A stretch of 16,604 nucleotides of DNA from the NCBI GenBank assembly GCA_031264605.1, contig JAISDQ010000182.1:1-16604 (forward strand), read 5' to 3'. The notes under the pieces were generated by a model that was given only the letters and a program-made list of their open reading frames with translations, ran no database searches and was not told where the DNA came from. Source of the DNA: Synergistaceae bacterium (lineage in GTDB: Bacteria > Synergistota > Synergistia > Synergistales > Synergistaceae). A program made the translations under genes and the position numbers. Shown piece by piece: positions 1 to 13,248 of this stretch. The stretch's first letter is position 1. Every line of letters starts with the position of its first letter.

Positions 1-862
1 TCTGATCAAGAAAGCGGTCTCCAACGGGGTGCTCAGCTTCCAGATCAATTATCCCGCCGATTCGGTATACGAACTGGAAAATGAGTTTTATTCGCATTTC
101 GACCTTGATAAAGTGGTAATAGTCCCCACCTCCGTGGACGATATCGGCACAAGGATGAAGGATACCTGCGGGATGGTGGCCTCCGATCTGTGCAAGATCA
201 TACGGCCGAACGACATATTGGGGGTTTCGTGGGGCCTCACGATGGATCAGCTCGCCAGCACGATATCCACCGAGATGCTGATAAACAGAAAGTGCGATAA
301 GGTGGTCATGATGAACGGCTCCATAGCGAGCGAGGTGTATTCGACCAAGTCGAGCTACATCGTCGAACAGTTCGCGGACTTCTTCTCCGCCGAGGGATAC
401 CTGCTGCCGGTTCCAATGATCGTCGACAGCAAGGAGTTGGCCGACACGCTAAAGACTGATTCGCACATAAAATACGTCATGGAGTACGCCAATAACTCCC
501 GTCTAGCTGTATTCAGCATCGGAAGCGCGTCGTACGAGTCGGTTTTGCGCAAACGCGGAGCATATTCCAGAGAGGATTACGAGGATGTTTTGACAAGGGG
601 AGCGGTCGGCGATATTTTGGGGCGCTGTTTCGATATAGACGGCCGGTCGGTCGGGGGCGATATAGACGACCGAATCATAGGTATGGACATAGAGACGCTC
701 AAAACCAAGAATACCCGCATTGGGATAGGGGTCGGCGACAAGAAGGCCAGAGCCATAATAGGCGCGCTGCGCGGCGGAATGATCAGCCGCCTTTACACCG
801 ACGGCATGACGGCAAGGGAGGTAGTAAAGCTTCTCAACGCCGCGGACAATGTCGGAACGTAA
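1..862 (+). CDS. SorC/DeoR-family transcriptional regulator, sugar(-phosphate)-binding domain; 5' end (HTH) truncated by window edge
   Basis: The frame is open from base 2 (LIKKAVSNGVLSFQINY...), upstream of the GTG at 29 listed in the track. Motifs typical of the SorC/CggR/DeoR(B. subtilis) effector-binding domain are present: IVPTSVDD, GVSWG, VVMMNGS, VGDILGRCFDIDG and IGIGVGDKKARAIIGALRGG. Stop TAA at 860-862. Confidence 0.8.
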   Translation, partial: LIKKAVSNGVLSFQINYPADSVYELENEFYSHFDLDKVVIVPTSVDDIGTRMKDTCGMVASDLCKIIRPNDILGVSWGLTMDQLASTISTEMLINRKCDKVVMMNGSIASEVYSTKSSYIVEQFADFFSAEGYLLPVPMIVDSKELADTLKTDSHIKYVMEYANNSRLAVFSIGSASYESVLRKRGAYSREDYEDVLTRGAVGDILGRCFDIDGRSVGGDIDDRIIGMDIETLKTKNTRIGIGVGDKKARAIIGALRGGMISRLYTDGMTAREVVKLLNAADNVGT

Positions 863-895
863 TATACGAGCCGATTGCAATCAATTTATACGAGC
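863..895 (+). promoter_or_regulatory. Direct repeat TATACGAGC (x2, 24 bp apart) flanking palindrome ATTGCAAT, between the regulator stop and the first dehydrogenase start; candidate operator
   Basis: Seen directly: TATACGAGC at 863-871 and 887-895, ATTGCAAT at 875-882. A function as an operator is inference only. Confidence 0.25.
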
Positions 896-910
896 GAGGG
901 GATAAAAGCG

Positions 911-1972
911 ATGAAAGCGGTTATGATGTATAAACCAAAGGATCTGAGGATCGAGGATGTGCCGGTTCCGGCTCCGAAAGAAAATGAAGTGCTGGTAAAA
1001 GTCATGGGCTGCGGGGTATGCGGTTCCGACATACCAAGGATCAACAAATACGGCGCGTACTTCGCCCCCATCATACCGGGGCATGAATTCTCCGGAAAGA
1101 TTGTCGAAACCGGACATGCGGTCAAGGACTTCAAGGATGGCGACCGCGTTACCGTCCCGCCGCTCATTCCATGCTACAAATGCGAATGGTGCGGGAAAGG
1201 ACTGTACTCCCTCTGTTCCGGCTATGACTATTTCGGGTCGAGAAGGCACGGCGCGATGGCGGAGTACGTGGCCGTTCCCGAGGCCAACCTGCTGCGCTTG
1301 CAGGATAACGTAGGCTACATCGACGCCGCGACGACCGACCCCTGCGCCAATGCTCTGCACGGGCTCGCGCAGTCGAAGCTCCGGCCGGGCGAGGTTTTCC
1401 TCGCGTACGGCGCCGGCCCCATAGGGCTGTTTGCCTTGCAGGTTGCCCGCGTCCACGGCGCGTCAAAACTCATCACCGTGGACATCGGGGAGAAGAAGAC
1501 CGCGGTAGCGAAAAAGTATGGGGTGGATGTCGTCATTGACGCGTCCAAGGAGGATCCGGTCGAGGTCATAAAGAAGGAAACCGGAGGCAAGATGGCCGAC
1601 GTCGTCATCGATTTTACCGGAGCGCCCCCGGCCCAGAAAAAAGCCATAAACTGCGCCGGAAAGATGTCGAGGGTCGTCCTTCTCGGAATCTCCCACAGCG
1701 GACTCTCGCTGGACGAACACGAGGTCGACAATATCATGAGGGGACAGATATCAGTGATCGGCTCTTGGAATTCGTTCACCAAACCGTTCCCCGGGAACGA
1801 CTGGTTCGAGAGCCTGAAACTGTTCAGCGAGGGTAAAATATCGGCTGGGCATATGATAAGCCACAAGCTGCCACTGGATGAAGCGCCGGACATATTCAGG
1901 CAGATCGACGCCGGCGGCCTGTTTTTCAACAAGGTAATGTTCTTCCCGCACGGCGAGAACTTCGGCGAGTAG
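911..1972 (+). CDS. Zn-dependent alcohol/polyol dehydrogenase (MDR superfamily; sorbitol / galactitol-1-P / threonine dehydrogenase-like)
   Basis: Catalytic Zn ligands in GCGVCGSD and PGHEFSG. Structural Zn site CYKCEWCGKGLYSLC. Rossmann motif LAYGAGPIGL. ATG at 911 preceded by GAGGGG; the track's TTG at 875 is less likely. No N-terminal extension. Confidence 0.85.
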   Translation: MKAVMMYKPKDLRIEDVPVPAPKENEVLVKVMGCGVCGSDIPRINKYGAYFAPIIPGHEFSGKIVETGHAVKDFKDGDRVTVPPLIPCYKCEWCGKGLYSLCSGYDYFGSRRHGAMAEYVAVPEANLLRLQDNVGYIDAATTDPCANALHGLAQSKLRPGEVFLAYGAGPIGLFALQVARVHGASKLITVDIGEKKTAVAKKYGVDVVIDASKEDPVEVIKKETGGKMADVVIDFTGAPPAQKKAINCAGKMSRVVLLGISHSGLSLDEHEVDNIMRGQISVIGSWNSFTKPFPGNDWFESLKLFSEGKISAGHMISHKLPLDEAPDIFRQIDAGGLFFNKVMFFPHGENFGE

Positions 1973-2014
1973 ACGGATTTACACGCGTTTTGAGCGTATA
2001 TTGAGGAGAACATC

Positions 2015-3055
2015 ATGCTGGCTTGCGTATTCAAAAACGGAAAGTTTGAACTTGCCGAAAAACCTGTCCCGAAGGCCTCTTCCGACAGCGCGGTCGTAAA
2101 AATAAAGGCGACGTCCATATGTGGTACTGATTTCAGGACGTACGTCCACGGCAGCAAGAAGATACTCGAAGGCATAACCGTGGGGCACGAGCTTTGCGGC
2201 GAGATAGTCGAGATAGGAGAAAGCGTGGCCGGGTTTGCCAAAGGAGAAAGGGTTACGGTCGCGCCGGCGCTAGGCTGCGGGGAGTGCTACATGTGCAGAA
2301 AAGGGCACTCCAATATGTGCGACAATCTCAAGACTCTGGGGTATCATTTCGACGGTTCCTTCGCCGAGTACATGGAGATTCCGTCTCCGTTCTTCACGCG
2401 CGGACACGTCAATCATGTCGCGCCGTCGGTCGGCTCCGACCAGGCCGCGCTGGCGGAACCGGTGGCATGCGCCGTCAACGCGCAGGAGTTTTTGCGTATA
2501 GAAAAGGGCGACTACGTCGGAATTTTCGGTTCTGGATTCATCGGATGCAGTCACGCTGAACTTGCCGCGGCGCAGGGCGCTGAAAAGATCATAATGATAG
2601 AGCCCAACGCCGACAGGCTTGAGATTGCCAAACGGACGATCCCCGGAATATACGGGATCACCGGCGACGCCGACGTCGCGTCGTCCGTCAGGAAAATAAC
2701 GGATGGCAGGGGCGTTGACGTCGCCATCGTCGCTTGTTCCGTAGGCCCGGCTCAGACGGCCGCGATCGAGATCGCGGCAAAGCGGGGGAGAGTAAGCCTC
2801 TTCGGCGGACTTCCGGGCGAAGGCAGAGGATTTGTGGACAGCAATCTCATCCACTACAACGAACTCGGAATCTTCGGCGTACACGCTTCCACGCCGCAGC
2901 AAAACCGGCATGTCCTCGATTGGCTGGCCAGCGGCAAAATAGATACGGCGAAGTATATAGCGAAGAAATACCCTCTCGGAGATATCATGCAGGCTTTCGA
3001 CGACATAGCGAAAAAGGGCATCATGAAGGCCGTTATAGCCGACGAGGGCTATTAG
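2015..3055 (+). CDS. Zn-dependent alcohol/polyol dehydrogenase (MDR superfamily), second paralog
   Basis: Catalytic Zn ligands in SICGTD and VGHELCGE. Structural Zn site GCGECYMCRKGHSNMC. Rossmann motif IFGSGFIG. GAGGAG RBS before ATG 2015. Confidence 0.85.
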   Translation: MLACVFKNGKFELAEKPVPKASSDSAVVKIKATSICGTDFRTYVHGSKKILEGITVGHELCGEIVEIGESVAGFAKGERVTVAPALGCGECYMCRKGHSNMCDNLKTLGYHFDGSFAEYMEIPSPFFTRGHVNHVAPSVGSDQAALAEPVACAVNAQEFLRIEKGDYVGIFGSGFIGCSHAELAAAQGAEKIIMIEPNADRLEIAKRTIPGIYGITGDADVASSVRKITDGRGVDVAIVACSVGPAQTAAIEIAAKRGRVSLFGGLPGEGRGFVDSNLIHYNELGIFGVHASTPQQNRHVLDWLASGKIDTAKYIAKKYPLGDIMQAFDDIAKKGIMKAVIADEGY

Positions 3056-3106: not shown

Positions 3107-3748
3107 ATGGACGAGGGACGCGTCAAACTCGAGGTCGAGATCAGAAACGCTGTTTTAATGGCGATATATAAAAAAACCGGTGTGAGATATGTGCCGGTCG
3201 CTGTATCGAACAGGCACGCGCATCTCTCGCGCGCGGATATGGAAGTTTTGTTCGGAGCGGGCCGCAAACTGACGCCCATGAAATCTCTCTCGCAGCCGGG
3301 GCAGTACGCCGCGAAAGAGACTCTCTCGCTGACCGGCCCGAAAGGCAGAATAGACGGAATTCGAGTCCTCGGCCCCGAGAGGGGAAGTTCGCAGGTGGAG
3401 ATATCCGTCACGGATTCGTTCAGGCTTGGCATAACGCCGCTCATCCGCATGTCCGGCGATACGGCCGGCAGTCCAGGGGGACGTGTGGAGACGAAGCTCG
3501 GCTCGGTGGAGTTGAGCGAGGGCGTGATCGTCGCGGCAAGGCACATGCACATATCTTCCGCTCAGGCGCAAATCATGGGCCTCTCCGACGGCCAGGCGGT
3601 ATCTCTCAAGTCCGCCGGCGGACGCGGGGTCGTGTTCGACAATGTGGCCGTCAGGAGCGGAGAGGGTTTCGACCTGGAGGTTCACCTCGACACCGACGAG
3701 GCCAACGCGGCGCTTTTGAGGGACGGGGATCTCCTCGAAGTAGTGTGA
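3107..3748 (+). CDS. pduL: PduL/EutD-type phosphate acyltransferase (phosphotransacylase) with N-terminal amphipathic helix (putative encapsulation peptide)
   Basis: Both PduL repeat signatures are present: VPVAVSNRHAHLS and VIVAARHMHIS. Also QPGQYAAKETL, GPKGRIDGIRVLGPER and DTDEANAA. The first ~25 aa (VKLEVEIRNAVLMAIYKK) form an amphipathic helix before the catalytic domain starts. Confidence 0.85.
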   Translation: MDEGRVKLEVEIRNAVLMAIYKKTGVRYVPVAVSNRHAHLSRADMEVLFGAGRKLTPMKSLSQPGQYAAKETLSLTGPKGRIDGIRVLGPERGSSQVEISVTDSFRLGITPLIRMSGDTAGSPGGRVETKLGSVELSEGVIVAARHMHISSAQAQIMGLSDGQAVSLKSAGGRGVVFDNVAVRSGEGFDLEVHLDTDEANAALLRDGDLLEVV

Positions 3749-4452
3749 ATATGTCTGTGCTGGGTGGGATTTTGGATATCTCGGATGAAAGACAGAGGGG
3801 CTTGCTGATCGGCAGGATCGCTCAGGAGGTATTGTCCCGGCTGAGCGCCCTCGATGCGAAGGATGAAAATGTCTCGGGTACGGTGGTGCTGATGACCTCT
3901 CATATTCCGTCGCCCGCGAGCGCGATGTCAAAATTGAGGGAGAACTTCGGCGGCGAATTGTCCTTCATCGACTTCGGGGTGAAGATTCCGTTTGGTCTCC
4001 CGAATGTCATAGACGCCGGGAAAGAGTCGGAGGGAAGTCTGACGGAGACGGTGGCTTCGGCGGCCGGGGTTGTGCTCCTGGCGCCGAAGATAGGATTGCT
4101 CGACAGCATAGCGAAGGGCGACGACAGGGATTTCATCCCGTATCTCGTGATACGCAGCATGCTGTGGGGAAGAGATGTGAGCGTGCTGCTTGATTTCGAG
4201 CCGCCGCGTTTCAGAAGGAACACGTTTTTTGAGAAACTTGCCGATACGTTCGCGATCCTTCAGGACATGGGGGTCAGACTGCTGACTTATAAATGCGCGC
4301 AAAAGGGCGCCGAGGGTCTGTGCCTCGTCACGGAGGCCGACGTCACAGAAGCCTGGAGAAGCCGCAGGACCGAGATACGCCGGGCGCCGGGCGCTATAAT
4401 TACCCCGGCGGCGAAAGACAAGGCCGGAGAACTCGGGATCAGGCTCAATTGA
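3745..4452 (+). CDS. Hypothetical BMC-associated protein, unknown function; N-terminal amphipathic helix (possible encapsulation peptide). May start at ATG 3751.
   Basis: ORF fills the gap between pduL and the BMC-P gene and overlaps the pduL stop (GTGA). Codon usage matches its neighbours. N-terminal LLIGRIAQEVLSRLSAL helix. No recognisable catalytic motifs (no P-loop, no HxH). C-terminal IITPAAKDKAGELGIRL is vaguely reminiscent of PduM-type BMC structural proteins; this is from memory only and unverified. Confidence 0.5.
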   Translation: MNMSVLGGILDISDERQRGLLIGRIAQEVLSRLSALDAKDENVSGTVVLMTSHIPSPASAMSKLRENFGGELSFIDFGVKIPFGLPNVIDAGKESEGSLTETVASAAGVVLLAPKIGLLDSIAKGDDRDFIPYLVIRSMLWGRDVSVLLDFEPPRFRRNTFFEKLADTFAILQDMGVRLLTYKCAQKGAEGLCLVTEADVTEAWRSRRTEIRRAPGAIITPAAKDKAGELGIRLN

Positions 4453-4494
4453 ATATCTGTTCTCATACCTCAAGACGCCGGACAGGAGAAGCAA

Positions 4495-4794
4495 ATGCAA
4501 TTATGCAGAGTTAAAGGCACAGTGGTTAGCACCAACAAGAGCGAAAAGCTGAACGGTTTGAAACTGCTGATCGTGAAACCCATTGACATCGAGACGTTCG
4601 AGGAAAAGGGCGGTATAGTCGTGGCGATCGACGCGGTGGGCGCCGGCGAGGGGGAGGTGGTGATGTGCGTCGGGGGGAGTTCTTCGCGCCAGACGGGCAT
4701 CACTGACGGAAAACCGGTGGATCAGTCCATCGTGGCCATCATTGATTCCGTGAATATGAACGGCAAGCGTATTTTTGAAAAATTCAAGGTATAA
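4495..4794 (+). CDS. BMC vertex (pentamer) protein, EutN/PduN/CcmL family (BMC-P), paralog 1
   Basis: MQLCRVKGTVVSTNKSEKLNGLKLLIV...VAIDAVGAGEGEVVMCVGGSSSR is a classic EutN/CcmL fold sequence of ~99 aa. GGAGAAG RBS. Confidence 0.85.
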   Translation: MQLCRVKGTVVSTNKSEKLNGLKLLIVKPIDIETFEEKGGIVVAIDAVGAGEGEVVMCVGGSSSRQTGITDGKPVDQSIVAIIDSVNMNGKRIFEKFKV

Positions 4795-4824
4795 GCACAA
4801 CTTTATAATAAAGAGGTCGAAGAG

Positions 4825-6261
4825 ATGGCGCTAAGCGAGGCACAGATCAGACAGCTTGCAAATGACGCGATTCTGGAGGTAAATGGCGCGAAACCATCGG
4901 CGCCTTCGGGAAAACCGGCGTATTCCGTGTTGCCGCCGGCATCTGGGCAGTGGCTGTGCGACGACGCAAACGAAGCGATCGCGAACGCGAAGCGGTCACA
5001 GATGATACTCGCCAGGATGCCGTTGGAGCAGCGGGGCAGGATAATATCGGCAATGAGAGAAGCCGCCGTCAGGCACGCGGAGACGCTTGCCGAACTCGCT
5101 CACAATGAGACCGGTTACGGGAGGGTAGATCACAAGGTTTTGAAGAACCGCCTGGCCGCTGCAAACACGCCTGGCATAGAGGATCTCCGCCCGATGGCGT
5201 ACAGCGGAGACAACGGACTCACCATAGTGGAGGGAGCGCCGTTCGGGGTGATAGGTTCCATAACTCCTTCGACCAATCCTACATCCACGGTCATAAACAA
5301 CTCGATAAGCATGATAGCGGCCGGCAACTCCGTGGTGTACAATCCGCATCCGTCCGCGAAGAATTCTTCCACTGAGGCGATGCGCGTCCTGAATGAAGCG
5401 GCAGCGGCTGCCGGAGGTCCGCCCGCCCTCATGACCACGGTAAAGGTTCCGACTCTGCAGAGCGGAGCTGCCATCATGAGCCACAGGGACGTCAAATTAC
5501 TTTCCATCACGGGCGGCGAGGCCGTCGTCAGCGTGGCGATGAAATCGGGCAAGAAAGTGATCGCCGCCGGGCCCGGAAATCCGCCGGTTATCGTGGACGA
5601 TACCGCCTTCATACCGCAGGCCGCTAAAGATATAGTCGACGGTGCGAGCTTCGACAACAACGTGCTCTGTGTGGCCGAGAAGGAGGTGTTCGCCTTCGAG
5701 GGTATCGCGGGAGAGCTGGTGAGCCAGATGGTACACTGCGGGGCCCACAAAGTTTCCGGAACGGACATCGATAAAATAGTCAATACGGTGTTGGAGAAGC
5801 GCGACGGCAAGTACGTCATAAACAGAAATTTCGTAGGGCGCAGCGCGACCCATATACTCGAACAGAGCGGAGTCCCTTACGTCGGGGAGCCGAGGCTGGT
5901 CATAGCCGAAGTGGACAAGTACCATCCGTTTGTGACGACTGAAATGCTGATGCCGGTGCTTCCGGTCGTCCGCGTCGGCAACATAGACGAAGCCATCGAG
6001 GAAGCGCTTCGCGCGGAACAGGGATATCAGCATTCGGCCATGATTCACTCCACGAACATACGGAATATGTCCGCCGCGGCCTACGCGCTGAACACGACGA
6101 TATTCGTGAAGAATGCGCCGTCATACAGCGGATTGGGCTTCGGGGGGGAGGGCTACGCCACTCTTACGATAGCGACTCCGACCGGGGAGGGCCTGACGAG
6201 CGCGAAGTCCTTTACCCGTGCCAGGCGATGCGTATTGAAGGGCGATTTCAGAATCGTCTGA
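4825..6261 (+). CDS. CoA-acylating aldehyde dehydrogenase (PduP/EutE family) with N-terminal encapsulation peptide and Pro/Ser-rich linker
   Basis: ITPSTNPTST motif. Catalytic Cys in FDNNVLCVAEKE. AAGPGNPP motif. ~478 aa. N-terminus SEAQIRQLANDAILEV (amphipathic) followed by NGAKPSAPSGKPAYSVLPPASGQ linker. Confidence 0.9.
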   Translation: MALSEAQIRQLANDAILEVNGAKPSAPSGKPAYSVLPPASGQWLCDDANEAIANAKRSQMILARMPLEQRGRIISAMREAAVRHAETLAELAHNETGYGRVDHKVLKNRLAAANTPGIEDLRPMAYSGDNGLTIVEGAPFGVIGSITPSTNPTSTVINNSISMIAAGNSVVYNPHPSAKNSSTEAMRVLNEAAAAAGGPPALMTTVKVPTLQSGAAIMSHRDVKLLSITGGEAVVSVAMKSGKKVIAAGPGNPPVIVDDTAFIPQAAKDIVDGASFDNNVLCVAEKEVFAFEGIAGELVSQMVHCGAHKVSGTDIDKIVNTVLEKRDGKYVINRNFVGRSATHILEQSGVPYVGEPRLVIAEVDKYHPFVTTEMLMPVLPVVRVGNIDEAIEEALRAEQGYQHSAMIHSTNIRNMSAAAYALNTTIFVKNAPSYSGLGFGGEGYATLTIATPTGEGLTSAKSFTRARRCVLKGDFRIV

Positions 6262-6268
6262 TTCGATC

Positions 6269-7576
6269 ATGAACGTAGCGGAGATGATTCGCAGCGCCGG
6301 AGTGGTGGGAGCCGGAGGCGCGGGATTCCCGACCCACGTCAAGGTAAACGCGGCTTCGCCCGAGTGCGTCATAGCCAACGGAGCGGAGTGCGAGCCTTTA
6401 TTGCGGGTGGATCAGCAAGTCATGGAGTTCCACGCCGGTTCTGTCATTGAAGGGTTGCGTCTGGTCATGAGCCATACTGACGCGCGTCGTGGCGTCATCG
6501 CCCTGAAGGATCACTACGAGGGCGCGATAACGGCTCTCCGGCGTGAGTTGTCCGGCTCGGACGACATAGGGCTTCACGTCATGAGAAGCTACTATCCCGC
6601 CGGGGACGAACAGCAGCTAGTGTACGATATCTGCGGGCGGGTCGTTCCGACAGGCGGGATTCCTCTTGATGTGGGGGCGGTGGTATTGAACGTCAGCACG
6701 CTTATGCACGTGGACGAAGGGAGCCGGAACATCCCGGTGACGGATAAATATGTGACGGTCGGCGGAGCGGTTCGCAGGCCTGTTACGGTCAAGGCCCCGA
6801 TAGGCGCGCCGATGGACGTTTTACTCGACGCCGCCGGAGGGACGACGGAGAAATGCGGTTACATAATCGGAGGGCCCTGTATGGGCAGAGTTGTCTCAGA
6901 CCTGAGCTTCCCGGTCGTGAAAACTACCGGAGGGATCATAGCGATACCGGAGGGACATCCGCTCCTTCAAAAAAAGAGCGATCGCATGAGCGTGCAGCTT
7001 ATCAAAGCCGTGTGCTGTCAGTGTTCCTTATGCACCCAGATGTGCCCCAGAAACGCGCTTGGGCTTCGCGTCGAACCTCATAAGGCTATGCGCAGCCTGG
7101 CCCAGGGAGTCGACCTGCTAAATGGGGCGAATGGCCTTTTCTCCTGCTGTGACTGCGGGATATGCACATACTACGCCTGCAATTTCGGCCTGAAACCGTC
7201 CAAGGTCATGGGACTGCTGAAGGCTGAAATGCAGAAGGCGGGAGTCAAGCCCAGGAAGGAAGTTTACTCGGCGGCCGACAGGGGGCTCGGCATGAAGAAA
7301 CTGCCCACCGCAAGGCTCATACACAGGTTGGGCATAGGGAAGTACGATGTGGCGGCTCCCATGGAGGAGCGTCCGATTTATACGGCCGTCGTCAGGATAC
7401 CCCTCAAGATGCACATAGGCGCCCCATCCAAGCCGGTTGCCTCGGTCGGACAGCGCGTAAACAGGGGCGATCTGATTGCCGATATACCGGAGGGGGCATT
7501 GGGCGCGAAAGTACACGCGAGCATCGACGGGACGGTTACCGAAGTGACCGGCGAATATATGGAGATAAAGGTGTAG
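6269..7576 (+). CDS. pduS: PduS-like Fe-S flavoprotein (RnfC/NADH-dehydrogenase 51 kDa-like domain plus two 4Fe-4S ferredoxin motifs)
   Basis: N-terminus MIRSAGVVGAGGAGFPTHVK matches the PduS/RnfC signature. Two cluster motifs: CCQCSLCTQMCP and CCDCGICTYYAC. The stop is only 4 nt upstream of the PduT-like gene. Confidence 0.8.
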   Translation: MNVAEMIRSAGVVGAGGAGFPTHVKVNAASPECVIANGAECEPLLRVDQQVMEFHAGSVIEGLRLVMSHTDARRGVIALKDHYEGAITALRRELSGSDDIGLHVMRSYYPAGDEQQLVYDICGRVVPTGGIPLDVGAVVLNVSTLMHVDEGSRNIPVTDKYVTVGGAVRRPVTVKAPIGAPMDVLLDAAGGTTEKCGYIIGGPCMGRVVSDLSFPVVKTTGGIIAIPEGHPLLQKKSDRMSVQLIKAVCCQCSLCTQMCPRNALGLRVEPHKAMRSLAQGVDLLNGANGLFSCCDCGICTYYACNFGLKPSKVMGLLKAEMQKAGVKPRKEVYSAADRGLGMKKLPTARLIHRLGIGKYDVAAPMEERPIYTAVVRIPLKMHIGAPSKPVASVGQRVNRGDLIADIPEGALGAKVHASIDGTVTEVTGEYMEIKV

Positions 7577-7579
7577 CTG

Positions 7580-8128
7580 ATGGGACAGGCGCTTGGAATG
7601 ATTGAACTCATAAGTGTTCCCGCTGGGATCGAGGCCGGCGACGCGATGCTGAAAGCCGCCGCCGTGGAATTGGTGACGGCGCAGGCGGCTTGCGCGGGCA
7701 AATACTTCGTCGCGGTCACCGGCGAGGTGGCCGCGGTGGAAGCGAGCGTCAAAGCCGGCAGGGAAGCCGCGTCCATGAAGCTGATCGACAGTCTCGTGAT
7801 ACCGAATATAGACGCGCAGGTACCCCTCGCCATCAACATGTGCAGCGATCCGGGGGAAATAGAGACGCTCGGGGCGATAGAGACGTTCTCTCTGTGCGCC
7901 GCGATAGTGGCGGCGGACTGCGCCGTGAAAGCCGCGCGGGTACGGCTCATAGAGATCAGGCTGGGCAGAGGGTTGGGCGGCAAGTCGTTCATAACTCTCA
8001 CCGGCGATGTGGCGGCGGTAAAAGCCGCGGTGAAAGCCGCCTCGGAAGTCGAAGAAGTCAGAGGCCTGATGGCGGAGAGCGTGGTAATACCTTCGCCGCA
8101 CCCCGATATGGTCAAGGCGGTATTTTGA
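7580..8128 (+). CDS. pduT: PduT-like tandem-domain shell protein (BMC-T) with conserved pore cysteine (Cys38) for a 4Fe-4S cluster
   Basis: 182 aa with two BMC domains. Aligns along its length to Salmonella PduT: MGQALGMIELISVPAGIEAGDAMLKAA, IDSLVIPNIDAQVPLAI and GAIETFSLCAAIVAADCAVKA...VIPSPHPDM. Cys at residue 38 (TGC 7691-7693) is at the position of the PduT cluster ligand. Confidence 0.8.
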   Translation: MGQALGMIELISVPAGIEAGDAMLKAAAVELVTAQAACAGKYFVAVTGEVAAVEASVKAGREAASMKLIDSLVIPNIDAQVPLAINMCSDPGEIETLGAIETFSLCAAIVAADCAVKAARVRLIEIRLGRGLGGKSFITLTGDVAAVKAAVKAASEVEEVRGLMAESVVIPSPHPDMVKAVF

Positions 8129-8169
8129 ATTTTACAGATACTTTGAATACAATATGAGGAGGACTGAAA

Positions 8170-8481
8170 ATGTCCAAAGAAGCACTGGGAATGGTTGAGA
8201 CAAGAGGGCTGATAGGCGCGATCGAGGCGGCGGACGCTATGGTAAAGGCCGCCAACGTTTCCCTGATCGGCAAACAGCAGATCGGAAGCGGGCTGGTCAC
8301 TGTCATGGTGAGAGGTGACGTAGGGGCCGTGAAAGCCGCTGTCGACGCCGGAGCGGCGGCCGCCAAGAGGGTAGGCGAACTCTACGGCGTGCATGTCATC
8401 CCCAGCCCCCATGGGGACGTGGAAGGCATACTGCCGACGATTAACGCCGCTCCCCCGGCGCCGGCGAAGTCGAAAGCATAA
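8170..8481 (+). CDS. BMC hexamer shell protein (BMC-H, PduA/EutM-like), copy 1, with Ala/Pro-rich C-terminal tail
   Basis: [26 protein letters not shown]...[16 protein letters not shown] is the canonical Pfam00936 domain. Tail [24 protein letters not shown]. Confidence 0.9.
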
Positions 8482-8488
8482 ACGAGCC

Positions 8489-8755
8489 GTGTACGCGGGC
8501 GAGGTCGTCGGGTGCGTAGTAGCTACGGTTAAGGAACCCAACCTGGAGGGTATACCGCTCCTGGTGGTGAGGGTAATCGAAAACGGCAAGCCGGCCAATC
8601 TGGTGGTTGCCGCGGATTCGACCCGTCAGGCCGGCAGCGGCGACCATGTGTACATGATCGGCTCCAAGGAGGCCGCTCGCATGTTCCGTAAGAAGCTGAC
8701 TCCGGTGGATGTGGCGATTGTGGGTTTTATTGACGAATACAGGGAGGAACTTTGA
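8489..8755 (+). CDS. BMC vertex protein (EutN/PduN family, BMC-P), paralog 2; probable GTG start
   Basis: VYAGEVVGCVVATVKEPNLEGIPLLVVRVIENGKP...AADSTRQAGSGDHVYMIGSKEAARMF. The same frame stays open upstream to 8393, but that stretch overlaps the BMC-H tail in another frame and is Arg-rich junk. GTG at 8489 gives the canonical MxxAxVVGxVV start. Confidence 0.7.
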   Translation: MYAGEVVGCVVATVKEPNLEGIPLLVVRVIENGKPANLVVAADSTRQAGSGDHVYMIGSKEAARMFRKKLTPVDVAIVGFIDEYREEL

Positions 8756-8794
8756 GCCCCCCTTATTTGATGATCTGAAAGGTGGAATAAAGAA

Positions 8795-9073
8795 ATGGAG
8801 AAATTGGCGCTTGGTATGGTAGAGACGAGGGGTTTGATAGGCGCGATCGAAGCGGCGGACGCCATGGTTAAGGCCGCTAACGTGACTCTGATTGGCAAGG
8901 AACAGATCGGCAGCGGTCTCGTGACCGCTATGGTGAGAGGCGACGTGGGCGCGGTAAAGGCGGCCGTCGACGCCGGAGCGGCGGCGGCGAAAAGAGTCGG
9001 CGAACTCTATGGCGTACACGTTATCCCAAGCCCGCACAACGACGTCGAGGGTATTCTGCCCGGCAAAAAATAG
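8795..9073 (+). CDS. BMC hexamer shell protein (BMC-H), copy 2 (near-identical protein to copy 1, diverged at synonymous sites)
   Basis: [97 protein letters not shown]. Confidence 0.9.
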
Positions 9074-9082
9074 GGGACGCCG

Positions 9083-9370
9083 GTGAGAATCGCCGCAGTC
9101 GTAGGAAACGTAGTTTCCACGATAAAGGACGAGTCATACCGCGGATACAAACTTATGATCATCGAATACCTGAACGAGGACGGAAAACCGTCCGGGGCGC
9201 GTCAGATAGCGTTTGACGCCGGACAGGCCGGCATAGGCGACGTAGTGCTCGTCAACGTGGACGGGGGAGCGGCGAACATGATGCTCGATAAAGACGTCAT
9301 CGCCGATCTCACAATTTGCGGCGTCCTGGACAGCTATACCTATGACGGGAAGACGAAGGTATTCTTCTGA
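9083..9370 (+). CDS. BMC vertex protein (EutN/PduN family, BMC-P), paralog 3; GTG start
   Basis: MRIAAVVGNVVSTIKDESYRGYKLMII...AFDAGQAGIGDVVLVNVDGGAANMM matches the EutN fold sequence. Confidence 0.8.
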   Translation: MRIAAVVGNVVSTIKDESYRGYKLMIIEYLNEDGKPSGARQIAFDAGQAGIGDVVLVNVDGGAANMMLDKDVIADLTICGVLDSYTYDGKTKVFF

Positions 9371-9383
9371 GGTGGTGGTTGAA

Positions 9384-10133
9384 ATGGATATTGAAAAGAT
9401 CGTGAGCGATGTGCTCAAGGAGGTTCAATCCGGGGGAACTGTTCACGGAAAACCCTCGCCGGGTTCGGTTCAGGCGTGGGAAGTTCCGTCGAAGCTGGAG
9501 CACTCGCTGCTGAACCCGGATGTCGGCCTCGGCAAGATATTGGCGGAGTGCGCCGTCGCGCGGCGGTATTGCGTAGCGGCGGTCTGTGTCGCGCCCTATT
9601 ATGTGTCCGCCGCCGCCGACGTCCTGAGAGGAAGCGGCGTAAAGGTCTGCGCCGCGATAGGTTTCCCGCACGGTTGCATGTCGGCGGCGTCAAAACTGGC
9701 CGAAGCGCGCGAGTGCGTCAAAAACGGCGCGGACGAAATCGACGTCGCGATGAACATTCTTGCGGTAAAATCGGGCAGGATCGCCGACGCAAGGGACGAT
9801 TTCGAACAGATAGCGGCCGCCTCGCGCGGAAAGACTACGCTCAAGGCGGTTTTCGAGCACAGCGTGTACTCCGACGAGGAGAAGCGCGCCGTGCTGGAAA
9901 TCGTGAAGACCTGCGGAGCCGAGTTCGTGAAGATACAAAACGTCCTGAGCGGCAAGGGCGCCGAAACCGAGGACATAAAATATGTGAGGAATATCCTGGG
10001 CCGTAACGTGAAAGTCAAGATCGACGGCGGCGTAAAGACGCTGGCGAAGGCGATGGAACTGTTGTCCGCGGGAGCGGATCGCATAGGACTCACAGCGACC
10101 GCGGCGATCGCGAAAGAGGCGGAGTGTAAATAA
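9384..10133 (+). CDS. Divergent DeoC-family class I aldolase (deoxyribose-phosphate aldolase-like) with N-terminal extension (putative encapsulation peptide)
   Basis: TIM-barrel DeoC architecture: AAVCVAPYYV, AAIGFPHG, EFVKIQNV (Schiff-base Lys retained) and KVKIDGGVKT (second Lys retained). The consensus TSTGF and phosphate-loop GTSSG are replaced by IQNVL and GLTAT. N-terminus MDIEKIVSDVLKEVQS plus a Gly/Pro/Ser linker. ATG 9384 with GAGGTGG RBS; the track's start at 9342 overlaps the upstream gene. Confidence 0.7.
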   Translation: MDIEKIVSDVLKEVQSGGTVHGKPSPGSVQAWEVPSKLEHSLLNPDVGLGKILAECAVARRYCVAAVCVAPYYVSAAADVLRGSGVKVCAAIGFPHGCMSAASKLAEARECVKNGADEIDVAMNILAVKSGRIADARDDFEQIAAASRGKTTLKAVFEHSVYSDEEKRAVLEIVKTCGAEFVKIQNVLSGKGAETEDIKYVRNILGRNVKVKIDGGVKTLAKAMELLSAGADRIGLTATAAIAKEAECK

Positions 10134-10164
10134 AAGGCCTTAATACGATTATTGGAGGAATAAG

Positions 10165-11001
10165 ATGAGCGCGATAGATATCAATGAAATTATCAGGCAG
10201 GTGACTGCCGAGATATGCGCCAACTACGGCGCGGCTTCTTCCGCGCCGGCTGATGAGTACAGTCCGGCGTCGCTGGCGAAGTACATCGACCATACGCTGC
10301 TTAAGCCCGACGCCAGCCTGAACGATATACGCAAGGTCTGTGACGAAGCAAAGAAGCATAACTTCGCTAGCGTGTGCGTGAACACCGGCTACATAAAATT
10401 CGTAGCCGACGCTCTGGAGGGCAGCGGAGTGGCGCCATGCTGCGTCGTCGGTTTCCCGCTGGGAGCCATGATGCCCGAGGCCAAAGCGGCCGAGGCGCTG
10501 TGCGCCGTCAACAGCGGCGCTAAAGAGGTCGACATGGTCATAAACGTCGGAGCGGTGAAATCATCCGACTGGAAATTGGTCCACAGCGACATAGAGGGCG
10601 TCGTGACGGCGGCTCGCGGAAGAGCCATAGTGAAGGTGATAATAGAGACATGCCTCCTCACCGACGAGGAAAAGGTGAAGGCATGCGCGATCAGCAAACT
10701 CGCGGGGGCTCATTTCGTGAAAACGTCCACCGGATTTTCGACCGGCGGAGCGACGGTGGAAGACGTGCGTCTGATGCGCCGGACAATAGGTCCCGATATG
10801 GGACTCAAGGCATCCGGAGGAGTGAGGACGTACGAGGACGCGGTCAACATGCTGAAGGCCGGAGCCACCAGGCTGGGAACCAGTTCAGGAACGAAGATCG
10901 TATCGGGCGACGGCGCGGCGGAGCACAAATGCGTGAACTGCGGAGCGTGCAAAGTCGTGTGCCCGAGCGGCAGGGCCACGGTCATAAAAGGCCTGTACTG
11001 A
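10165..11001 (+). CDS. deoC: Deoxyribose-phosphate aldolase (DeoC) with N-terminal encapsulation-peptide-like extension and C-terminal CxxCxxCxxxCP 4Fe-4S ferredoxin-type motif
   Basis: Canonical DERA motifs: YIDHTLLKPDA, VCVNTGY, VVGFPLGA, HFVKTSTGFSTGGAT, GLKASGGVRT and RLGTSSG. N-terminus MSAIDINEIIRQVTAEI plus an Ala/Ser/Pro linker. C-terminal tail KCVNCGACKVVCP (nt 10930-10965). Confidence 0.85.
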   Translation: MSAIDINEIIRQVTAEICANYGAASSAPADEYSPASLAKYIDHTLLKPDASLNDIRKVCDEAKKHNFASVCVNTGYIKFVADALEGSGVAPCCVVGFPLGAMMPEAKAAEALCAVNSGAKEVDMVINVGAVKSSDWKLVHSDIEGVVTAARGRAIVKVIIETCLLTDEEKVKACAISKLAGAHFVKTSTGFSTGGATVEDVRLMRRTIGPDMGLKASGGVRTYEDAVNMLKAGATRLGTSSGTKIVSGDGAAEHKCVNCGACKVVCPSGRATVIKGLY

Positions 11002-11023
11002 CCTGGGTATCTTTTAAAAATAT

Positions 11024-11779
11024 ATGAGAAAACCGATTATCGCCGGTAACTGGAAGATGAACATGACGCCGTCACAGACGGTGAAGCTGATCGAGGAGAT
11101 CAAGCCTCTCGTCGCGGAGGCGAGATGTGAGATCGTCGTCTGTCCGACCCATACGTGCCTCTTTGCGGCTAAAGAGGCCCTTAAAGGGACGGACAGAATA
11201 TCCCTCGGCGCTCAGGACATGTTTTACGAGGAGAGGGGCGCTTTCACCGGCGAGGTCTCCTGCGAATCGCTGCTCGAACTCGGCGTCAGATACGTGATCA
11301 TCGGACATTCGGAGCGCCGCCAATACTTCGCCGAGTCCGACGAGACGGTCAGCAAAAAAGTCACGAAGGCCCTGGAAAAACGCCTGATTCCGATTGTCTG
11401 CGTGGGCGAGTCGCTCACGCAGAAACAGCGGGGAGTTACGAACGAAACCGTGGGGTTGCAGACGCGTCTCGCGCTTTTCGGCGTCGGCGCCGGAAACGCG
11501 GAGGACGTCGTGATAGCGTACGAACCGATCTGGGCAATCGGAACAGGCATGACGGCCACCAGCGCGGAGGCGAACGGCACGATACGCCGTATAAGAGGCG
11601 TCCTCGCCGAGATGTACAATCCGGAAACCTCGCGGAAAGTCCGCATTCTTTACGGGGGCAGCATGAACGCCGGAAACGCAGGGGAATTGCTTTCAACGAG
11701 CGACATAGACGGAGGACTGATAGGCGGCGCGAGCCTGAAGAGCGGCGATTTCGCGCAAATCGTGGGCAACTTGAGCTGA
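11024..11779 (+). CDS. tpiA: Triosephosphate isomerase
   Basis: IIAGNWKMN, catalytic His in IIGHSERR, AYEPIWAIGTG (catalytic Glu) and YGGSMN. No N-terminal extension. Confidence 0.9.
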   Translation: MRKPIIAGNWKMNMTPSQTVKLIEEIKPLVAEARCEIVVCPTHTCLFAAKEALKGTDRISLGAQDMFYEERGAFTGEVSCESLLELGVRYVIIGHSERRQYFAESDETVSKKVTKALEKRLIPIVCVGESLTQKQRGVTNETVGLQTRLALFGVGAGNAEDVVIAYEPIWAIGTGMTATSAEANGTIRRIRGVLAEMYNPETSRKVRILYGGSMNAGNAGELLSTSDIDGGLIGGASLKSGDFAQIVGNLS

Positions 11780-11797
11780 TATTGACAATGGTTCAGG

Positions 11798-11831
11798 GGA
11801 GTCCGACGATAGCCGGCTCCTTTATTTTTTT
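11798..11831 (+). terminator. Putative rho-independent terminator of the BMC operon
   Basis: GGAG(T)CCG / CGGCTCC stem with one bulge and an 8-nt loop, followed by TTTATTTTTTT. Sits 19 nt after the tpiA stop. Confidence 0.5.
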
Positions 11832-11865
11832 GTGTGTGATTCGGAATGATAAAGCAGGAGAATCA

Positions 11866-11917
11866 CGCAAAGTGACATACCCCCCTGATTCAGCGAATGG
11901 GAGAATGTCACTTTGCG
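11866..11917. repeat. 13-bp perfect inverted repeat (CGCAAAGTGACAT / ATGTCACTTTGCG) with 26-nt spacer, each arm preceded by a GGAGAAT direct repeat
   Basis: Seen directly: 11866-11878 pairs with 11905-11917. GGAGAAT occurs at 11857-11863 and 11900-11906. Lies between convergent tpiA and the minus-strand oxidoreductase gene. Confidence 0.4.
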
Positions 11918-11928
11918 CAGAATTCAAG

Positions 11929-13125: not shown

Positions 13126-13248
13126 CGCACCTTTTTTCTTTGCGTCTTCCTACCCTCTTTTAATACTATTTCCCATAGTACACCCTTATCCGCCGCTCCG
13201 GCTATTTCACGGAATATTTCACAAAGACCTTACCTGGCATGTCTCGCC

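Follow-up and report, generated by a model that had tools for sequence, protein, structure and literature searches.

What is the function of a bacterial microcompartment (BMC) whose operon encodes two DeoC-family aldolases, and does such a locus represent a new kind of system? The locus in question lies in a Synergistaceae genome (GCA_031264605.1) and is seen here through one 16.6-kb contig (JAISDQ010000182.1, whose 16,604 nt are referred to as the window); satellite genes beyond the contig are possible. We estimate at about 80% the probability that positions 3107 to 11779 constitute a complete metabolosome operon of the SPU4 subtype of the "sugar phosphate utilizing" (SPU) class.

The shell operon and its aldehyde-processing enzymes

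The features of the operon, including those with an encapsulation peptide (EP), are as follows.

3107..3748, + strand: PduL-type phosphotransacylase (PF06130, E 7e-69; PRK15070, 240 bits versus a cut-off of 209)
3751..4452, + strand: EP-bearing eut_hyp (TIGR02536)/PduM-related protein of a flavoprotein-fold family (family profiles, AF2 model, Foldseek)
4495..4794, + strand: BMC-P 1, vertex pentamer (PF03319, E 3e-27)
4825..6261, + strand: CoA-acylating aldehyde dehydrogenase (AldDH) of the EutE/PduP type (PF00171; NCBIfam PRK15398, 623 bits versus a cut-off of 403)
6269..7576, + strand: PduS homolog, i.e., metabolosome NADH dehydrogenase (MNdh) (PF01512, PF10531, PF13534, and PF13375)
7580..8128, + strand: PduT-like tandem-domain shell trimer, BMC-T^S/BMC-T^SE (two PF00936 domains; TIGR02526, 112 bits, below cut-off)
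8170..8481, + strand: BMC-H hexamer 1 (PF00936, E 4e-29)
8489..8755, + strand: BMC-P 2, pentamer (PF03319, E 1e-16, residues 36-114 of a longer ORF)
8795..9073, + strand: BMC-H hexamer 2 (PF00936, E 3e-29)
9083..9370, + strand: BMC-P 3, pentamer (PF03319, E 9e-22)
9384..10133, + strand: DeoC-1, divergent EP-bearing paralog of deoxyribose-5-phosphate aldolase (DERA) (TIGR00126, 165 bits versus a cut-off of 117)
10165..11001, + strand: DeoC-2, canonical DERA (TIGR00126, 279 bits)
11024..11779, + strand: triosephosphate isomerase TpiA (PF00121, E 4e-89; profile position 1 at residue 4)
11795..11831, + strand: probable terminator, hairpin GGGGAG...CUCC and then the U-run UUUAUUUUUUU (-14.9 kcal/mol)

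All of the genes are codirectional on the + strand, with intergenic gaps of 2-51 nt. Searches with PF00936 and PF03319 recovered, all on the + strand, the two BMC-H, one BMC-T, and three BMC-P proteins that the first-pass annotation had listed, together with the acylating AldDH (PRK15398) and PduL (PF06130) of its aldehyde core and its two DeoC-family aldolases plus TpiA (TIGR00126, PF00121). The EP-bearing flavoprotein-fold protein and PduS/PduT complete the listed elements, and the E-values of the profile matches are strong enough to exclude chance. TpiA is the final gene, for which a longer in-frame ORF is impossible, and the hairpin and U-run that follow it probably terminate the operon, beyond which the genes are convergent; the energy of the hairpin is by itself unexceptional (z = -1).

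Nineteen ORFs were chosen as likely genes for the profile scan, and none matched a diol dehydratase, ethanolamine ammonia-lyase, glycyl-radical enzyme, or RpiB (PF02502); the window also contains no B12-related gene and no Fe-ADH. The absence of the first three enzymes, as previously annotated, extends to 10 kb around syntenic relatives, and no other signature enzyme was found within 10 kb of loci L002, L004, L087, L088, and L089. The same gene order is found in other Synergistales (L002 and L087), Clostridiales Family XIII (L088), Faecousia/Oscillospiraceae (L008 and L009), Christensenellaceae (L013), and a very common metagenomic organism (L004/L005; protein in 2768 index blocks).

Among the shell proteins, BMC-H 1 ends in a short Pro/Ala/Lys extension, and the start of BMC-P 2 was corrected from ATG 8393 to GTG 8489, giving 88 aa as in the L002 and L087 orthologs (range for orthologs, 88-90 aa). 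The BMC-T gene begins 3 nt past the end of the PduS gene, and its pore cysteine lies within CAGK, where AQAACAGKY aligns with the CPGK of homologs from Dorea, L037, and L061. The protein at 3751..4452 has no Pfam or NCBIfam match on its own, but 17/20 members of its family match TIGR02536 weakly (best E 3e-7) and 8/20 match PduM. Its AF2 model (pLDDT 80) has an N-terminal helix at residues 13-33, and the best Foldseek matches are EpiD, UbiX, PPC-decarboxylase, and DmrB (probability 1.0, TM 0.4-0.5). An eut_hyp-type protein is listed for nearly every SPU4 locus (Sutter 2021, PMC8217296 Supplementary Data 2); what had been annotated as an unknown EP-bearing protein is present and EP bearing but belongs to this already cataloged eut_hyp/flavoprotein-like family of SPU4.

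Amphipathic N-terminal extensions are found on DeoC-1, DeoC-2, AldDH (about 45 residues, amphipathic at residues 7-20), the eut_hyp-like protein, and PduL (29 residues, with the PF06130 domain starting at residue 30). TpiA, PduS, and the zinc-dependent dehydrogenases described below have none, and TpiA, lacking one, is presumably cytosolic. We read the gene set, catalytic residues, N-terminal extensions, and synteny from the sequence, and we infer what the substrate is, that each enzyme is encapsulated, and which way the flux runs. Deoxyribose 5-phosphate (dR5P) would enter the shell of two BMC-H, one PduT-like BMC-T, and three BMC-P proteins, and carbon would pass from dR5P to G3P and acetaldehyde, the latter going to acetyl-CoA and then acetyl-P. 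The encapsulated AldDH would convert acetaldehyde, CoA, and NAD+ to acetyl-CoA and NADH. The PduL reaction converts acetyl-CoA and Pi to acetyl-P and CoA, and here PduL would thereby regenerate CoA within the shell, while G3P would exit and be equilibrated with DHAP by cytosolic TpiA. PduS/PduT would regenerate NAD+, with electrons passing through a shell-pore 4Fe-4S cluster to a cytosolic acceptor.

Biochemistry published for this class makes the earlier statement that none was known outdated. Activity on dR5P has been measured with the purified DERA of SPU6 (Dwyer et al. 2024, PMC11585597), and PduS/PduT have been characterized as the MNdh/BMC-T^SE NAD+-recycling module (Sutter et al. 2024, PMC11626177). 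MNdh carries FMN and two 4Fe-4S clusters and has the same four-domain architecture as PduS of the window (PMC11626177). Given this published function, the adjacent PduS and PduT genes support the SPU4 mechanism.

Two DeoC-family aldolases

DeoC-2, a canonical DERA, is the signature enzyme of the locus. It is 63-66% identical to crystallized DERAs (E 3e-77), and in the alignment it keeps every active-site and phosphate-site residue of the Escherichia coli enzyme (D102, K137, K167, K201, T170, G171, G204, G205, S238, S239, and the terminal Tyr), which supports the aldolase-centered SPU reading and dR5P route of the first-pass annotation. Its N-terminal EP is predicted by AF2 to form a helix at residues 6-22. 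Before the terminal Tyr, the C-terminal tail contains the motif C256-x2-C-x2-C-x3-C-P267 (nt 10930-10965), which is found in 118/120 of the closest homologs and resembles the single 4Fe-4S repeats of polyferredoxins. The tail holds one inserted ferredoxin-type Cys repeat, for which we found no description in an SPU DERA in the literature searched.

DeoC-1 (start corrected to ATG 9384) is 100% identical to a 249-aa database protein (P0141) and 36% identical to DeoC-2, EP included. In an alignment of 61 sequences of the DeoC-1 type, comprising the window protein and 60 relatives, equivalents of D102, K137, K167, and K201 are invariant (61/61), and the substitutions D16E, T18S, T170N, G171M/V, K172L, A203D, S238T, and S239A are invariant or nearly so. 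The equivalent of Y259 occurs in 0/61, the C-terminal Tyr tail being gone; this tail is important for DERA turnover. Positions 171, 203, 238, and 239 are those that we take to line the phosphate site. DeoC-1 has kept the catalytic Asp and Lys residues and remodeled the phosphate pocket, so that a second or different substrate is possible.

The position of DeoC-1 is also distinctive. RPI (PF02502), named as a shared SPU signature (Sutter 2021, PMC8217296), is directly upstream of DERA in 6/6 SPU loci tested with Pfam, and DeoC-1 fills the same slot in the window. RPI is absent from the window and from eight other DeoC-1 loci (counting L004/L005 as one), and DeoC-1 is absent from 21 RPI loci; within the sampled loci, the two are mutually exclusive. 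RPI is also missing from 11/29 curated SPU4 loci (PMC11585597). No description of a conserved DERA paralog at the RPI position was found in the literature searched.

Upstream genes and the rival explanations

Three further genes precede the operon.

2..862, + strand: SorC/DeoR (Bacillus)-type sugar-phosphate-binding regulator (PF04198, E 2e-58)
911..1972, + strand: ADH1, Zn-dependent medium-chain dehydrogenase of the polyol/polyol-phosphate dehydrogenase type (PF08240 and PF00107)
2015..3055, + strand: ADH2, Zn-dependent medium-chain dehydrogenase, threonine/sorbitol-dehydrogenase-like (PF08240 and PF00107)

The regulator, whose gene is truncated at the 5' edge of the window with its frame still open there, is probably part of the SPU system, and homologs adjoin a DERA with the Cys tail in L006, L007, L010, L014, L087, and L089. 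Among NCBIfam profiles, it scores highest against B. subtilis-type DeoR (179 bits, below cut-off). In eight Bacillota loci, of which seven are from Bacillales/Paenibacillus and one is from Clostridium, homologs of about 30% identity lie next to a housekeeping deoC. Membership in the DeoR family and these deoC-flanking homologs would count in favor of the SPU4 reading; the absence of RPI and the CAGK pore motif of PduT in place of CP(G/S)K count against it.

The closest solved relative of ADH1 is E. coli galactitol-1-P 5-dehydrogenase (E 4.5e-62), and those of ADH2 are L-threonine 3-dehydrogenases (E 3e-43). Homologs of ADH1 (45-80% identity) adjoin tail-type DERA in L006, L007, L010, L012, L087, L088, and L089, and ADH2 is coconserved with ADH1 in L006, L007, L087, and L089. 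Neither has an N-terminal extension, for which reason ADH1 is presumably cytosolic. Synteny suggests that both probably belong to the same unit as the SPU operon. Recurrence of SorC and two Zn-dehydrogenases (window positions 2-3055) beside tail-type DERA was not described in the literature searched. An FGGY sugar kinase and a ribose-type ABC transporter also recur in the loci of relatives. A feed of nucleoside-derived dR5P alone leaves the Zn-dehydrogenases, the kinase, and the transporter unexplained.

The true feedstock might instead be an imported sugar or sugar alcohol rather than DNA-derived dR5P, which we consider unlikely. Cytosolic ADH1 and ADH2 and an FGGY kinase (in relatives or elsewhere) would then make the aldolase substrate, DeoC-1 would cleave a noncanonical substrate, maybe nonphosphorylated or 2-hydroxylated, and AldDH and PduL would take the aldehyde. 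Gene neighborhoods speak for this idea: the Zn-ADH pair and SorC adjoin tail-type DERA in the window, L006, L007, L010, L087, and L089, a single ADH does so in L012 and L088, an FGGY kinase is found in L007, L012, L014, and L088, and a ribose-type ABC transporter is found in L089 and L012, while a BLAST screen found such ADHs in only 1 of about 70 loci without tail-type DERA (L058, a non-BMC locus with tail-less DERA). The DeoC-1 family changes of G171 to Met/Val and A203 to Asp, with S238T and S239A, point the same way. However, DeoC-2 is an entirely typical DERA whose phosphate site is intact, DeoC-1 occurs without Zn-ADH in L002, L004, and L008, and the ADH module occurs without DeoC-1 in L006 and L089, which indicates that the ADHs are independent of DeoC-1. 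Furthermore, polyol dehydrogenases are not known to act in any pathway to a 2-deoxy-aldose phosphate, and the ADHs could be mere neighboring sugar-alcohol genes with the same regulator family.

Somewhat less doubtful, but still improbable, is that DeoC-1 is a noncatalytic structural partner of DERA that replaces the catalytically weak SPU "RPI," e.g., in core nucleation or as a heteromer with DeoC-2. In SPU6, RPI and DERA form a complex at a ratio of approximately 1:1; the catalytic Cys is missing from this RPI, and its isomerase activity on R5P is negligible (PMC11585597). DeoC-1 shares the RPI slot directly upstream of DERA, excludes RPI in the sample, and has lost the Tyr tail. Yet the invariance of the catalytic equivalents (61/61) extends to the substituted pocket residues, a pattern that typically marks selection on a specific active site and not a pseudoenzyme. 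Far less probable is a metabolosome of a known type (EUT, PDU, or GRM) with its signature enzyme beyond the window and the aldolases as accessories. AldDH, PduL, and PduS/PduT are common to those types, and the contig is short, but in the 10-kb flanks of syntenic loci (contigs of up to 228 kb) the genes on either side are unrelated and none encodes such an enzyme, each of the two aldolases has an EP-like extension, and the operon closes with the hairpin and U-run, past which convergent genes lie.

Relation to known microcompartments

Comparison with the published locus classification, as the first-pass annotation had proposed, gave an item-by-item match to SPU4 (PMC8217296). Shared with SPU4 are AldDH, PF01791 DERA with an N-terminal EP, PF06130 PTAC, PF00121 TIM, the eut_hyp/flavoprotein-like EP protein, the BMC-P triplet, two similar BMC-H proteins, and a PduS-associated BMC-T^S, with no BMC-T^dp; Dorea, a cited SPU4 host, yields the homologous locus L012. 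Unlike SPU4, the window has the divergent second DERA paralog in place of PF02502 RPI, a DERA whose C-terminal tail carries a ferredoxin-type Cys repeat, a TpiA without an EP, and two Zn-dehydrogenases and a SorC regulator directly upstream. The "unusual gene complement" and "elaborate variant" of the earlier annotation are mostly published SPU4 features (the BMC-P triplet, two similar BMC-H proteins, PduL, TIM, the EP-bearing eut_hyp/flavoprotein-like protein, and the PduS-associated BMC-T; PMC8217296, PMC11585597), whereas the literature searched seems to contain no description of the second aldolase or of the Fe-S-type tail, both of which that annotation had flagged.

The DERA-RPI pair of SPU6 (Chloroflexi), the only SPU enzymes assayed (PMC11585597), likewise includes a signature DERA with D102, K167, K201, and an N-terminal extension, with AldDH encoded downstream, but in SPU6 the EP of AldDH is C-terminal, the shell includes BMC-T^dp, RPI is in a complex with DERA, and PduS and PduL are both lacking. 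The window resembles the MNdh/BMC-T^SE module in its adjacent genes, four-domain PduS with two Cys clusters, and tandem-BMC protein with a pore cysteine (PMC11626177). However, the pore motif is CAGK in the window clade and not the CP(G/S)K described as universal (PMC11626177), and the cargo DERA carries an extra ferredoxin-type repeat outside the described module. The SPU-like BMCs of Hodarchaeales (PMC12747264) also combine DERA, AldDH, PTAC, PduS/BMC-T^S, the BMC-P triplet, and TPI and have a DERA fused to a redox-type module; there, it is a DERA-flavoprotein domain fusion, whereas in the window the flavoprotein-fold protein is separate and DERA has the Cys repeat, and the K/R-rich DNA-binding tail of archaeal BMC-P2 is missing from BMC-P 2 of the window. 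With EUT and PDU, the locus shares acylating AldDH, PduL, cofactor recycling, shell architecture, and EPs, but its signature is a cofactor-independent class I aldolase versus a B12-dependent lyase or dehydratase.

The locus is a fresh Synergistaceae instance of the cataloged SPU4 type and not a new kind of system, in a phylum (Synergistota) missing from the SPU4 host phyla of the 2021 catalog (PMC8217296). The job of the shelled organelle is most likely the cleavage of deoxyribose 5-phosphate and the capture of the toxic acetaldehyde.

Gene content and assignment to the SPU4 class

The contig belongs to a Synergistaceae metagenome-assembled genome, and ORF listing and translation place sixteen co-directional genes between its left edge and position 11779, followed by three convergent minus-strand genes. 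Pfam and NCBIfam scans of the 19 likely-gene ORFs identified the listed genes, and the inventory of the first-pass annotation is therefore correct, apart from two starts that were moved.

Genes of the plus strand, with the matches on which they are identified
2-862, +, SorC/DeoR-type sugar-binding regulator (Reg), truncated by the window edge (Pfam/NCBIfam)
911-1972, +, Zn-dependent medium-chain dehydrogenase, ADH1 (Pfam/NCBIfam)
2015-3055, +, Zn-dependent medium-chain dehydrogenase, ADH2 (Pfam/NCBIfam)
3107-3748, +, PduL phosphotransacylase (PTAC; PF06130)
3751-4452, +, eut_hyp-type protein, 233 aa (identical to NCBI hypothetical protein LBL05_06890)
4495-4794, +, first BMC-P (PF03319)
4825-6261, +, EutE/PduP-type acylating aldehyde dehydrogenase, AldDH (PRK15398, 623 bits)
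6269-7576, +, PduS homolog with four domains (Pfam)
7580-8128, +, PduT-like tandem-domain BMC-T (PF00936)
8170-8481, +, BMC-H1 (PF00936)
8489-8755, +, BMC-P2 (PF03319; start moved to GTG 8489)
8795-9073, +, BMC-H2 (PF00936)
9083-9370, +, third BMC-P (PF03319)
9384-10133, +, DeoC-1 (DeoC family; start moved to ATG 9384)
10165-11001, +, DeoC-2 (TIGR00126, 279 bits)
11024-11779, +, triosephosphate isomerase, tpiA (PF00121)

Intergenic spacing along the plus-strand genes is 2 to 51 nt, and a terminator-like hairpin with a U-run lies 3' of tpiA. Promoter and terminator consensus scans of the window gave counts not above those of shuffles, with no convincing terminator in the ADH2-PduL gap, and Rfam and tRNA scans of the window gave no match. 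In L087 (the closest long Synergistaceae relative; L numbers denote DERA loci fetched from other genomes), the operon is lengthened by a D-2-hydroxyacid dehydrogenase gene (11616-12584) that shares 4 nt with the 3' end of tpiA, at the spot where the window has the hairpin. The three convergent genes (11929-16511) have no apparent relation to the operon, and syntenic loci do not conserve them. One encodes a GFO/IDH/MocA oxidoreductase (top match, under the cut-off, levoglucosan dehydrogenase). Another product is a Memo-like/AmmeMemoRadiSam system protein B homolog; its N-terminus resembles a signal peptide, and its gene has no partners close by. The third is a DUF3160 protein of 829 aa.

The SPU name was given to loci that join a DeoC-like aldolase to a TIM (Axen 2014), and the class was later widened to >280 loci in seven subtypes (Sutter 2021, PMC8217296). 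Supplementary Data 2 of that catalogue lists for SPU4 AldDH, PF02502/PF01791, PTAC, and PF00121 TIM; almost all SPU4 loci also encode an “eut_hyp” (TIGR02536) protein, which is related to PF02441 flavoproteins and carries an N-terminal encapsulation peptide (EP) of 30 to 40 residues, and 14 of 33 contain a PduS-associated BMC-T^S. From 206 curated loci, Dwyer, Sutter and Kerfeld (2024, PMC11585597) proposed DERA as the universal signature enzyme, with D102, K167, and K201 as active-site residues, and counted RPI in no more than 18 of 29 SPU4 loci and in none of SPU5, so that RPI is no longer treated as a universal SPU feature.

Taken feature by feature, the window matches SPU4. DeoC-2 keeps D102, K167, and K201 and thus carries the SPU signature as defined in 2024; AldDH, a PduL-type PTAC, and triosephosphate isomerase are present, and the eut_hyp-type EP protein is recognized at the level of its family, the window protein alone being below significance. 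RpiB (PF02502), which belongs to the 2021 definition, had no Pfam match in the 19 likely-gene ORFs, nor did BLAST with SPU RpiB queries find it in ORFs of at least 50 aa from the window, L087, L088, and L089. The locus is therefore an RPI-less SPU4 locus in a Synergistaceae host, and the 2021 catalogue (PMC8217296) does not name Synergistota as an SPU4 host.

The first-pass annotation had recognized the SPU class correctly, and the published classification bears this out. What it called an unusual complement and an elaborate variant (the pentamer triplet, PduS/PduT, TIM, and the EP-bearing protein) is mostly standard for SPU4, and its statement that the class lacks biochemical characterization is outdated: dR5P cleavage by a purified SPU6 DERA (PMC11585597) and the function of the MNdh/BMC-T^SE module, the PduS/PduT pair (PMC11626177), have been published. 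It had also considered that a signature enzyme might lie just outside. No diol or glycerol dehydratase, ethanolamine ammonia-lyase, or glycyl-radical enzyme occurs among the 19 scanned ORFs, and no such enzyme was found in the 10-kb flanks of the related loci L002, L004/L005, L087, L088, and L089. L002 (Synergistales, 114-kb contig) has TRAP transporter and RraA-like genes upstream and unrelated genes downstream, and L004/L005 (214- to 228-kb contigs) have DeoR and Fe-ADH genes upstream and recA, recX, and miaB downstream.

The product of 3751-4452 has no Pfam or NCBIfam family match by itself, and its relatives weakly match TIGR02536 (17 of 20) and PduM (8 of 20). Its AlphaFold model (pLDDT 80) has an N-terminal helix (13-33) followed by a Rossmann-like domain, for which Foldseek returns the flavoproteins EpiD, UbiX, PPC-decarboxylase, and DmrB (probability 1.0, TM 0.4 to 0.5), that is, a PF02441-type fold. 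It is the eut_hyp-type protein of SPU4.

Shell proteins and the PduS/PduT pair

Three PF00936 proteins, one of them tandem, and three PF03319 proteins lie inside 4.9 kb, and by Pfam they reproduce the SPU4 shell pattern: a BMC-P triplet, two similar BMC-H, a PduS-associated BMC-T^S, and no BMC-T^dp. BMC-H1 and BMC-H2 share most of their sequence; BMC-H1 has a short Pro/Ala/Lys-rich C-terminal extension (8443-8481) that is absent from the otherwise very similar BMC-H2. The longest BMC-P2 ORF starts at 8393, within the BMC-H1 gene, and adds an Arg/Lys-rich N-terminus of 32 residues (8393-8488). This is most likely an out-of-frame artefact, because the orthologs are 88 to 90 aa long, and its likeness to the fused DNA-binding K/R tails of Hodarchaeales BMC-P2 is superficial.

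The four-domain PduS homolog stands directly beside the BMC-T^S, at a gap of 3 nt, as in the MNdh/BMC-T^SE module, which acts as an NADH dehydrogenase and sends electrons out across the shell (Sutter 2024, PMC11626177). The described module has a 4Fe-4S-binding CP(G/S)K pore motif, reported to be universal beside MNdh (PMC11626177), whereas the pore region of the window protein (residues 36-41, ACAGKY) keeps the cysteine in a CAGK motif. CAGK is common to the window, L002, L004, L006, L008, and L013; the Dorea locus L012 has CPGK. Among the loci listed, PduS/PduT is present in all complete loci with a tail-type DERA (see below) and also in L037 and L061, whose DERAs have no tail.

The two DERA-family proteins

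Related loci were collected by a scan for DERA loci in one genome per GTDB species, which kept at least 80 loci from at least 600 candidates, mostly housekeeping DERAs; annotation was by BLAST with the window proteins, with Pfam spot checks. The co-occurrence counts are plain counts from a small sample of few, mutually related lineages, and they indicate a pattern rather than a proof.

DeoC-2 is, as judged from its sequence, a canonical DERA. It matches solved DERAs with an E of 3e-77, its TIM-barrel model has a pLDDT of >90, and the alignment (numbered after E. coli DeoC from NC_000913.3) shows D102, K137, K167, K201, T170, G171, G204, G205, S238, S239, and the terminal Tyr all kept. Its N-terminus exceeds those of solved DERAs by ~35 amphipathic residues with a predicted helix at 6-22, an EP-like segment as expected for SPU and missing from housekeeping DERAs.

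DeoC-2 also carries a CxxCxxCxxxCP tail, which recurs in 118 of its 120 closest homologs, in the DERA of all window-type loci (defined below), and in L006, L007, L010, L012-L015, and L089. Among the loci listed, RpiB-type SPU DERAs outside Bacillota lack it and still end in Tyr, a pattern suggesting that the tail marks a clade. The tail can be aligned with single 4Fe-4S repeats of polyferredoxins and ferredoxins; Pfam Fer4 models match it under threshold, and it is disordered in the AF2 monomer model (pLDDT ~40). The BMC-associated DERAs inspected (L022, L023, L024, L039, L040, L054, L065, L073, and L079) all end in a C-terminal Tyr preceded by a variable Gly/Ser-rich tail, and the clade of the window has the ferredoxin-type Cys repeat as an insertion in this tail, right before the terminal Tyr (10996-10998). 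The Dorea SPU4 loci (L012, 9980-10846 and 18158-18916; L015) encode two EP-bearing DERAs, of which only one has the Cys tail; RpiB is encoded as well, and the phosphotransacetylase is of the Pta type (PF01515) instead of PduL.

Identity between DeoC-1 and DeoC-2 is 36%, and the likeness extends over a homologous N-terminal amphipathic segment, which together argue that DeoC-1 arose through duplication of a presumably encapsulated DERA. In an alignment of 61 DeoC-1-type sequences (the window protein and 60 relatives), D102, K137, the Schiff-base Lys K167, and K201 are invariant in all 61, and eight substitutions (D16E, T18S, T170N, G171M/V, K172L, A203D, S238T, and S239A) are invariant or nearly so. 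The canonical phosphate-binding pocket (G171, K172, S238, and S239) is not kept in this alignment, and none of the 61 sequences has a C-terminal tail or an equivalent of Tyr259. We take positions 171, 172, 238, and 239 to line the phosphate site, and Tyr259 presumably helps proton transfer. These residue roles reportedly go back to Heine 2001, DeSantis 2003, and Schulte 2018. With its catalytic residues kept and its pocket substitutions invariant or nearly so, DeoC-1 gives the impression of a specialist under selection, either for another substrate or as a partner protein, rather than of a decayed copy.

Its position is that of RPI in other SPU loci. In these (from Spirochaetes, Anaerolineae, Acidimicrobiia, Bacteroidales, and others), RpiB lies directly upstream of DERA, as in all six checked by Pfam, and BLAST finds an RpiB homolog in at least 21 loci. 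In the window-type loci (the window, L002, L004/5, L008, L009, L013, L087, and L088), DeoC-1 occupies this slot and RpiB is absent, and no case of RpiB together with DeoC-1 occurs among the loci listed (BLAST and Pfam spot checks), a pattern in which the two appear to be alternatives. The SPU RPI itself lacks the catalytic Cys, is almost inactive on R5P, and forms a ~1:1 complex with DERA (Dwyer 2024, PMC11585597).

The dehydrogenase module and a model for the locus

Homologs of Reg and the Zn-dehydrogenases repeatedly adjoin a tail-type DERA in the loci listed, in varied arrangements: shell operon-Reg-ADH1-ADH2-DERA in L006 and L089, Reg-FGGY kinase-DERA-ADH1-ADH2 in L007, and further cases in L010, L012, L087, and L088. 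The hosts are Synergistaceae, Christensenellales, Family XIII, and Dorea, with one or two polyol-type Zn-dependent dehydrogenases per locus, sometimes alongside an FGGY kinase or a ribose-type ABC transporter. Among the ~70 listed loci with a tail-less DERA, such dehydrogenases occur only in L058, which is not a BMC locus.

Reg/Zn-dehydrogenase regions
Window, 2-3055
L006, 6814-9997
L007, 2264-7886
L087, 1-2968
L088, 86-2781
L089, 6779-9999

This recurrence suggests that 2-3055 is probably part of the same functional unit as the shell operon, which would thus extend beyond 3107-11779. The regulator belongs to the family of B. subtilis DeoR, which responds to dR5P, and ~30%-identical homologs adjoin housekeeping deoC in at least eight Bacillota loci (seven Bacillales/Paenibacillus and one Clostridium), which weakly supports a deoxyribose-phosphate signal. 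The L058 cluster (6237-17265, a Bacillota MAG) joins ADH1/ADH2 homologs to a housekeeping-type DERA that has neither EP nor tail. It further encodes an FGGY kinase, an L-arabinose-isomerase-like protein, a GH1 glycosidase, and an arabinofuranosidase, and it looks like a shell-less counterpart of the dehydrogenase-DERA association. In L014 (8299-9808), the FGGY kinase beside the tail-type DERA is broken into overlapping ORFs, one for the N domain and one for the C domain, possibly by a frameshift or an assembly error.

The published SPU scheme is the best-supported model for the locus. dR5P would enter the shell and be split by DeoC-2 into G3P and acetaldehyde, from which AldDH would form acetyl-CoA and NADH; PduL would recycle CoA as acetyl-P, PduS/PduT would recycle NAD+ through electron export, and TpiA would act in the cytosol. 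DeoC-1, DeoC-2, AldDH, the eut_hyp-like protein, and PduL have N-terminal amphipathic extensions that fit their predicted encapsulation; TpiA has none, and none is possible from its ORF.

The published DNA-detritus model of SPU leaves the regulator and Zn-dehydrogenases, the FGGY kinase, and the ABC transporter unexplained. Erythritol-type tetrose-phosphate and apiose-type pathways were weighed for the ADH, FGGY, TpiA, and RpiB genes and not adopted. A joint reading, to which we give a probability of only about one in five, is that the SPU4 cargo of this clade is wired unlike the described model in tail, DeoC-1, and feedstock. Placed on the flexible DERA C-terminus right before the catalytically important terminal Tyr, the ferredoxin-type repeats could pair between subunits to form an Fe-S module talking to PduS/PduT or, alternatively, could make DERA activity redox-gated. 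DeoC-1 would have replaced the pseudo-isomerase RPI, either as an obligate partner of DERA or as a neofunctionalized class I aldolase. The linked SorC regulator, Zn-dehydrogenases, FGGY kinase, and ABC transporter would point to an imported sugar or polyol as feed, besides DNA breakdown.

The locus type as such is already catalogued. The DERA paralog at the RPI position, the ferredoxin-type DERA tail, and the linked polyol-type dehydrogenases are real, apparently undescribed, and conserved, and they refine a known system rather than define a new one. SPU, a class whose physiology is still largely inferred, ranks among the most widespread microcompartments; the window adds a Synergistaceae host, and its relatives point to a very abundant SPU4 clade of gut bacteria and other anaerobes. 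The clade's three peculiarities are the Fe-S-type tail of the signature aldolase, the conserved second aldolase replacing RPI, and the linked sugar-alcohol-type dehydrogenases. Should they prove functional, they would refine the “DNA detritus” model and widen the picture of electron handling inside metabolosomes.
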